6,032 bases of DNA from Escherichia phage ECO95 1-6-1. The notes under the pieces were generated by a model, which was not told the origin of the DNA, did no database searches, and worked only from the letters and a program-made list of their open reading frames with translations. The position numbers and the translations under genes are program-made. Within the stretch, counting starts at the first letter, position 1; each line of letters begins with the position of its first letter. The DNA lies in the sequence record OR845271.1; one strand, given 5' to 3'. Shown one piece after another: positions 5,037 through 5,082 of this stretch.

Positions 5037-5082
5037 TACCCCTACAGCGAGAAAGCTAGTAAAATATTCTTTACCCCTACAG
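5037..5082. repeat. 11-bp direct repeat TACCCCTACAG in two copies (5037..5047 and 5072..5082)
   Basis: Two exact copies 35 bp apart, upstream of plus-strand gene 5099..5593, flanking a TAAAAT -10-like hexamer at 5060..5065. Confidence 0.5.

Follow-up and report, generated by a model that had tools for sequence, protein, structure and literature searches.

Results

A conserved repeat pair upstream of an hkaP-like gene

We analysed a stretch of 6,032 nucleotides (nt) from Escherichia phage ECO95 1-6-1 (sequence record OR845271.1), referred to below as the window, which is the early-left (pL) operon of a P22-like phage. Upstream of an hkaP-like gene on its plus strand lies an exact 11-nt direct repeat, TACCCCTACAG, at 5037-5047 and 5072-5082, 35 base pairs (bp) from start to start. 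The pair had been pointed out in an earlier note on this DNA, whose description of two identical 11-bp copies 35 bp apart is exact, and both copies are conserved in relatives. The repeats belong to the known sieB-promoter/sas cassette of lambdoid phages, which here stands before an HkaP-like gene. On the plus strand the cassette of the window runs in the order 31-nt block, stem-loop 1 with copy 1, TAAAAT, copy 2, Shine-Dalgarno, ATG, and its features are the following.

4998..5028, no strand assigned: 31-nt conserved block GCCTGTCTTTTAACCACGTCAGGCTCGGTGG, invariant in the alignment and present exactly at about 170 loci
5029..5053, minus strand: stem-loop 1, with arms TTCTCGC (5029-5035) and GCGAGAA (5047-5053) in plus-strand letters
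5037..5055, plus strand: repeat copy 1 (core 5037-5047; repeat finder), invariant in lambda, P22-like phages and HK620
5060-5065, plus strand: putative -10 hexamer TAAAAT of the PsieB type, a T-A-n-n-n-T at constant distance from the 31-nt block
5072..5090, plus strand: repeat copy 2 (core 5072-5082), the last conserved block before gene-specific sequence
4976..5088, minus strand: stretch homologous to P22 sas, 83% identity over 115 aligned columns with the 127-nt P22A-sas
5099..5593, plus strand: HkaP-like gene, 164 amino acids, 63% identical to HK620 HkaP; phrog_1244

The genes for N, cIII and an Erf-type recombinase are all encoded on the minus strand, which is therefore the pL direction, so that pL transcription would pass antisense through the HkaP-like gene and the repeats.

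Taken by itself, the repeat pair is suggestive and just moderately unlikely by chance. When the sequence was resampled under a Markov-1 model, exact direct repeats of 11 nt or more, with copies no more than 100 nt apart, arose anywhere in 6 kilobases in about 12% of cases and within the 188-nt intergenic stretch in about 0.35%. The pair is certain as a real feature because it is conserved in relatives: neither core, ACCCCTACAG, varies between lambda, HK620 and a P22-like phage, where the inter-copy spacer and the downstream gene differ, and both remain unchanged while the spacer varies among five haplotypes. No third copy of TACCCCTACAG was found in the window with up to 2 mismatches allowed. 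The pair lengthens to 19 nt at 84% identity (repeat finder), as TACCCCTACAGCGAGAAAG at 5037-5055 and TACCCCTACAGTAAGAGAG at 5072-5090, each unit consisting of the motif and a purine-rich, Shine-Dalgarno-like arm; the Shine-Dalgarno-like AAGAGAG at 5084-5090 falls inside the extended copy 2.

Homology to the sieB-promoter/sas region

A blastn comparison matched window positions 4973-5104 to lambda 34377-34502 and to the regions upstream of HK620 hkaP and P22-like sieB. The four-way alignment contains a near-invariant 57-bp block, GCCTGTCTTTTAACCACrTCAGGCTCGGTGGTTCTCGyGTACCCCTACAGCGAGAAA, followed by TAAAnT and then by the invariant second ACCCCTACAG; divergence is found in the inter-copy spacer and in everything 3' of copy 2. 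The lambda sieB region shares the 57-bp block and both ACCCCTACAG copies with the window without change, and its gene is likewise convergent with N, but lambda has TAAACT where the window has TAAAAT, its copies lie 34 bp rather than 35 bp apart with a diverged spacer, and the downstream gene is another one. HK620 has the same gene family, TAAAAT, copy 2 and the TAAGAGAG Shine-Dalgarno context of the window. Its copy 2 lies within a perfect 7-bp hairpin, CTCTTAC-TGTAGGG-GTAAGAG, which is weaker in the window.

The P22 region is the one for which an RNA has been described. P22A-sas is a 127-nt RNA that was sequenced from infected cells (PMC13397905, Table 2), and its small-RNA sequencing signal, 1321 reads per million, came from infected cells only (PMC13397905). 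The sequence given there is 100% identical to P22 records and holds both repeat copies, as CUGUAGGGGU. P22 sas/sieB occupies the same pL slot as the cassette of the window, after the N homologue and upstream of a gene that opposes pL, and it likewise has both repeat copies, stem-loop 1 and the 31-nt block. As in P22, the antisense strand of ECO95 1-6-1 would span the Shine-Dalgarno and start codon of the opposing gene. The two differ in the target, which is SieB/Esc in P22 and would be an HkaP homologue in ECO95 1-6-1. According to reviews that summarise the work of Ranade and Poteete (1993), sas switches translation of sieB mRNA from SieB to Esc. Since the target gene here is HkaP-like and not SieB with an esc start, this switch need not apply.

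No Rfam match was found in 4930-5110 (cmscan, E up to 1); the other cmscan output consisted of Lambda_thermo at 4064..4006 and a weak match at 1659..1611, which has a sub-gathering score and probably arose by chance. The GenBank records of P22, lambda, mEp332 and HK620 carry no promoter or RNA annotation at the cassette, and in the accessible full-text literature on the motif, the sieB promoter and hkaP we found nothing beyond the P22 small-RNA paper (PMC13397905).

Promoter geometry

Copy 1 begins exactly 17 bp plus the hexamer upstream of TAAAAT and covers the -35 position. Copy 2 begins 6 nt downstream of TAAAAT, at the predicted +1 of the plus-strand mRNA, and its first nucleotide is the 7th past the -10 hexamer in the A, B and L032 variants of the cassette. 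Relative to the predicted start the copies thus extend from about -36 to -26 and from -1 to +10, and they lie 34-35 bp apart. A T-A-n-n-n-T hexamer (TAAAAT, TAAACT, TAATCT or TAGACT) is located 31-32 nt from the 31-nt block in all repeat-carrying variants. The earlier note had placed copy 1 where a -35 element would be relative to TAAAAT; this geometry is exact, and the position of the hexamer is conserved across the cassette variants. Its remark that there is no good canonical -35 also holds, as the -35 position reads TACCCC, with 2 of 6 matches to the consensus. A consensus promoter scan calls no promoter at the 5060-5065 hexamer, which it misses because the -35 is poor. A promoter has reportedly been mapped upstream of sieB in P22, and the lambda sieB promoter is said to have been identified through its homology to that of P22.

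TACAGT within copy 2 was considered as a -10 element or a sigma-dependent pause element and was rejected. A start set by it would strip the Shine-Dalgarno from the mRNA, and P22 has TACAGA at this site.

Stem-loop 1 and the 31-nt block

On the pL strand copy 1 reads CUGUAGGGGUA and forms the apex of stem-loop 1, UUCUCGC-UGUAGGGGUAC-GCGAGAA, with a predicted minimum free energy of about -10.9 kcal/mol. We found 40 distinct complementary stems at the stem-loop 1 position (mean z -2.4); one compensatory example is UCUCC/GGAGG in locus L154 (Ca. Phlomobacter), compared to UCUCG/CGAGA in the window. Such covarying inverted repeats around copy 1 are the signature of an RNA structure, here a predicted one. 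RNAalifold, given a MAFFT alignment, missed stem-loop 1 owing to the differing registers of the cassette variants and returned an invariant GCCUG/CAGGC helix with no covariation. Stem-loop 1 was assessed by per-sequence folding and stem tabulation.

Other roles considered for this element were rejected. The inverted repeat of stem-loop 1 as a phage-repressor operator was set aside on the finding that lambda and P22, which we take to have different repressors, share identical stem arms. A CsrA-binding or Shine-Dalgarno-mimic role of the GGGG loop does not fit, as GGA is missing in the motif family of the window and the motifs are inconsistent between families. There is no resemblance to a nut or boxB site.

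The 31-nt block is near letter-for-letter the same in lambda, P22, HK620, SfV and e14 and in prophages of Klebsiella, Enterobacter, Edwardsiella and Hafnia. It is far more conserved than its flanks: a search with nhmmer found three variants in 1.6 megabases of loci, too few for covariation. On the pL strand a GCCUG/CAGGC helix is predicted to be possible within it, and on the gene strand it supplies the -35-like TTNACC to those cassettes in which TATnCT adjoins it. The block may serve as the -35 and spacer of a promoter, as the 3' domain of the sas RNA, or in both capacities.

Two architectures of the cassette

Scanning viral and genome collections for the 31-nt block yielded about 170 loci, and the counts below are over 116 unique contexts. 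All of the approximately 170 loci share a layout in which, on the pL strand, a stem-loop precedes the 31-nt block, while a variable gene starts beyond it on the opposite strand. Two forms of this layout can be distinguished. In the single-unit form, found in SfV, in many prophages and upstream of ymfI in the E. coli K-12 prophage e14, TTNACC, 16 bp and TATnCT follow one another on the gene strand, TATnCT coming directly past the 31-nt block, and the motif occurs only once. One arm of the stem is overlapped by the -10, transcription is predicted to start within the loop, and the other arm extends into the Shine-Dalgarno. The duplicated form is found in this window, lambda, P22, HK620, some Klebsiella-type cassettes and other variants. 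There TTCTCG or ATCCTG, neither of them a -10, lies beside the block, the hexamer follows 31-32 nt on, and the second copy is at the predicted +1.

Cassettes with a -10 beside the block lack a second copy. A second copy without an adjacent TATnCT is present in 39 of the 116 contexts and TATnCT without a second copy in 69; neither is present in 7, and the single context with both owes its second copy to a low-complexity match. A second copy was defined here as a motif match of at least 8 nt, which shuffled sequences give in 1.5% of cases.

In the sequences compared, both copies change together across the cassette variants. There are three motif families, each with matching copies: CTGTAGGGGT; (TTGT)TGTTGGGGA(AT); and TTTGACTGTGGAA. 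The 19-nt unit with its Shine-Dalgarno-like arm, together with the existence of single-unit relatives, points to a tandem duplication of a promoter-proximal unit, and this is what the repeat looks like. The upstream unit would have kept the stem-loop and lost the -10, and the downstream unit would have kept the -10 and the real Shine-Dalgarno.

The cassette is widespread. A match is present in 1261 of 5426 complete E. coli genomes, or about 23%; these counts come from the blastn mode, as megablast gave no match, there being no shared exact word of 28 nt. The cassette of e14 shares the 31-nt block and the position of the stem-loop, whose apex is UGU/G-rich, and its gene opposes the early-left genes. 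It differs in that TATGCT adjoins the 31-nt block, there is no second copy and the predicted start is within the stem-loop. There (L131, 1501-1575) TTCACC, 16 bp and TATGCT are followed by a stem-loop that abuts the ymfI Shine-Dalgarno. This promoter matches the consensus at 8 of 12 positions and is unflagged by the scan, with a predicted start at NC_000913.3 ~1,201,464-1,201,471. We found no annotation of or literature on the e14 cassette; the Reg-Seq paper names just the intE-xisE-ymfH operon.

Several loci show further arrangements. A second, slightly divergent cassette occurs in the same locus in L087 (3123-3157), L050 (3710-3741) and L156 (7971-7998). In L025, L030 and L080 copy 2 breaks off after CCCC and continues into a hairpin, CCCCCTTATTTTGTCAGGGGG, in the region aligned to about 5072-5095; recombination seems to have joined the sequences within the repeat, and the downstream gene may have been lost. 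Finally, stretches identical or almost identical to phage lambda surround the pattern match in contigs assigned to unrelated taxa, among them Nocardioides, Paenibacillus, Bradyrhizobium, Vibrio and Pseudomonas, many of the contigs being short and of low coverage (L139-L141, L144, L149, L150, L152, L155, L157, L159, L162-L167, L170, L173, L175, L178 and L183). These are most likely lambda DNA contamination of the assemblies.

Genomic context

With Salmonella phage S.Kent 1-2-1 the window shares 99.7% identity, and it is a mosaic with respect to P22-like phages. The neighbouring features on the minus strand are these.

5594..5956, minus strand: N-type antiterminator gene (PF25694 N_peptide, 1.2e-18; phrog_271)
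4932..4958, minus strand: intrinsic-terminator-like hairpin AGGTCGCAATGCGGCCT plus T run (hairpin given as 4958..4942), about 40 nt past the 31-nt block
4064..4006, minus strand: cIII thermoregulator, Rfam Lambda_thermo (81 bits, full length), at the start of the cIII open reading frame (ORF) 4051..3911

The HkaP-like ORF abuts N head-on, as sieB does in lambda and P22 and hkaP in HK620, and the gene order around the repeats is alike in lambda, HK620 and ST104. The earlier note had called the plus-strand gene convergent. This is true with respect to N (5956..5594, minus strand), but not with respect to the DUF7666 gene (4910..4251, minus strand), from which it diverges, so that the repeats sit in a divergent intergenic region. 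A 27-nt tandem repeat of 3 to 4 copies, 91-96% identical, lies at 4459-4559 within the DUF7666 ORF and encodes a repeated peptide of the SAATNTGN type.

The HkaP-like protein has a coiled-coil N-terminal part and a CxxC...CxxC in its C-terminal part. HkaP of HK620 carries the record note 'putative superinfection exclusion protein'. A comparison of the HkaP-like protein with SieB of a P22-like phage revealed no similarity (E = 0.46), and there was no SieB Pfam match. A PADLOC match to Cas10 was marginal (E = 7e-4) and probably spurious.

The terminator-like hairpin is wanting at the equivalent position of lambda and P22, where ral sits, and in this ECO95 1-6-1 differs from P22. Lying between the sas-like stretch and the DUF7666 gene, it could form the 3' end of unmodified pL transcripts or of sas-like transcripts of ECO95 1-6-1 and is a candidate for the first terminator that pL transcription meets. 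The tL1 terminator, annotated inside HK620 hkaP, is unrecognisable in the window.

Discussion

The comparisons presented here allow us to consider what the two copies might do. We lean, with modest confidence, towards a model in which the locus is a duplicated cassette of the sieB-promoter/sas type, where an antisense RNA from pL silences a gene expressed from the prophage and complementarity between the apex of stem-loop 1 and the 5' end of that gene's mRNA is maintained. In the lysogen, with pL repressed, the weak -35-less promoter would fire and give an mRNA that starts in copy 2 with 5'-(U)ACCCCUACAG. During lytic growth pL transcription would pass N and proceed antisense through the HkaP-like gene and its leader. 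The resulting sas-like RNA would mask the leader, the Shine-Dalgarno (5084-5090) and the ATG (5099) and so block translation, and head-on transcription from pL would add interference. Stem-loop 1 is located upstream of where the mRNA is predicted to begin, and its apex, CUGUAGGGGUA, would be antisense to the predicted mRNA 5' end and could thus act as a structured recognition loop. Such a role would explain the need for both copies to stay alike.

By sequence, each of the three motif variants has an apex complementary to the mRNA 5' end predicted for it. Predicted duplexes between the mRNA 5' end and stem-loop 1 range from -21 to -31 kcal/mol within a motif family and from -6 to -21 kcal/mol, mostly weaker than -16, across families, although this comparison largely restates the identity of the repeats. 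In IS10, the loop of RNA-OUT pairs with the 5' end of RNA-IN and blocks ribosome binding. The likeness to IS10 would be one of proposed mode of action only, in that the apex of a stable antisense stem-loop would meet the extreme 5' end of its target. The IS10 loop, however, is directly antisense to the mRNA 5' end, whereas a loop of the type seen in the window lies upstream and would match through the direct repeat; moreover, the pairing in ECO95 1-6-1 is a predicted one and no separate antisense promoter was found for it.

Several points weigh against the recognition-loop model. The mRNA 5' end and the antisense RNA of ECO95 1-6-1 are predictions, and that the P22 promoter lies at the TAAACT hexamer is something we infer. 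An antisense RNA made in cis matches the leader along its whole length in any case and could, strictly, do without a further recognition loop. The consensus scan found no separate minus-strand promoter for a sas-like RNA. The cassette sequences are related by descent, and the counts over them describe a pattern and not independent events; their variety is limited to about three motif variants and five spacer haplotypes. Predicted folds hide part of copy 1 in a weak UGUA/UACA helix and leave the GGGG tetraloop alone exposed. Finally, stem-loop 1 is more stable on the pL strand in 52 of 54 sequences, but the observed asymmetry of -2.18 kcal/mol compares to -1.42 kcal/mol in shuffled sequences and is thus largely an effect of base composition, for which reason we have downgraded it as evidence. 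The predicted start and the P22 RNA data are then what decides which strand is taken to carry the functional structure.

Of the alternatives, the one that survives best, and which we still regard as rather unlikely, is that the repeat is a leftover of the tandem duplication whose copies do not interact, each being conserved for a local reason. The apex with copy 1 would then stabilise the sas-like RNA or help to process it, and copy 2, as initial transcribed sequence and leader, would affect promoter escape, mRNA stability or the antisense target. The Shine-Dalgarno-like arm of the 19-nt extended repeat agrees with this, as do the single-unit cassettes, which show the same layout of a -10 over a stem arm, a loop motif, the other arm and the Shine-Dalgarno. 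In HK620 copy 2 has a good hairpin of its own (CTCTTAC-TGTAGGG-GTAAGAG), and a cis-antisense RNA needs no second pairing site. Independent constraints, however, would not hold the copies identical through a change of motif, and all three variants are matched, unless these were to represent separate duplications or products of gene conversion.

The earlier note had taken the pair for a regulator binding site. In that case a transcription factor would bind the repeats as DNA, whether as an activator acting at -35 or as a repressor that spans -35 and +1; we consider this improbable, and nothing in our analysis calls for it. Direct repeats 34-35 bp apart at -36 to -26 and -1 to +10 would suit such a protein, as would the poor -35 (2/6) and the failure of the consensus scan to call a promoter, and a joint change of both copies is also expected for two sites of one protein. 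However, the motif is constant though the downstream gene differs (SieB versus HkaP), and it is still shared by HK620, which is annotated with an N like that of H19B/21 and a cI like that of 434/L; lambda and P22 presumably differ again in immunity type. With the motif constant despite differing gene, N and repressor types, no phage protein appears to track it. P22 and Salmonella phage F1055 have the same host and different motifs, which argues against a host factor. The earlier note had also proposed a search for further copies of the 11-mer. The lambda genome holds three exact motif copies (the repeat pair and one in gene C) and that of HK620 two, so neither has any beyond chance. A site at +1 fits a repressor and not an activator, and the suggestion of activator-dependent expression is therefore not upheld. 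Furthermore, copy 1 lies between covarying inverted repeats, the signature of RNA structure, as the apex of a stem-loop, and both copies are within the published P22 sas antisense RNA (PMC13397905).

Least probable is that the conserved blocks, with copy 2 among them, serve chiefly as joints for recombination at lambdoid module boundaries and have no regulatory role: conservation does end exactly at the 3' end of copy 2 with gene-specific sequence after it, the same upstream block precedes unrelated genes (sieB, hkaP, ymfI and others), and L025, L030 and L080 have foreign sequence joined inside copy 2, but recombination alone would not account for the -10 hexamer, for the covarying stem or for copies that change in step, the spacer diverges where the copies do not, and an antisense RNA described by experiment includes this region (PMC13397905).

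Returning to the antisense model, a broader form of it can be offered tentatively. In this form the 31-nt block and the covarying stem-loop make up a modular cassette for the expression of prophage accessory genes, with the loop on the pL strand recognising the 5' end of the opposing mRNA. Duplication would have moved the promoter 35 bp downstream, complementarity of the loop would have been selected, and a cis-antisense RNA would have gained an element of the trans type.

The repeats are thus largely explained as part of the known sieB-promoter/sas region, which in this phage precedes an HkaP-like gene. The accessible literature is extended by the breadth of the cassette, which is present in about a quarter of complete E. 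coli genomes, including K-12 e14, and has no Rfam match, as well as by its two architectures and the matched change of both copies. The matched copies provide a concrete, testable hypothesis for how an antisense RNA finds its target. If the model is true, a promoter would have been relocated by tandem duplication while an RNA recognition element was preserved, and the cassette could help annotators of prophages to recognise accessory genes that are expressed in lysogens, including candidate genes for superinfection exclusion and defence.

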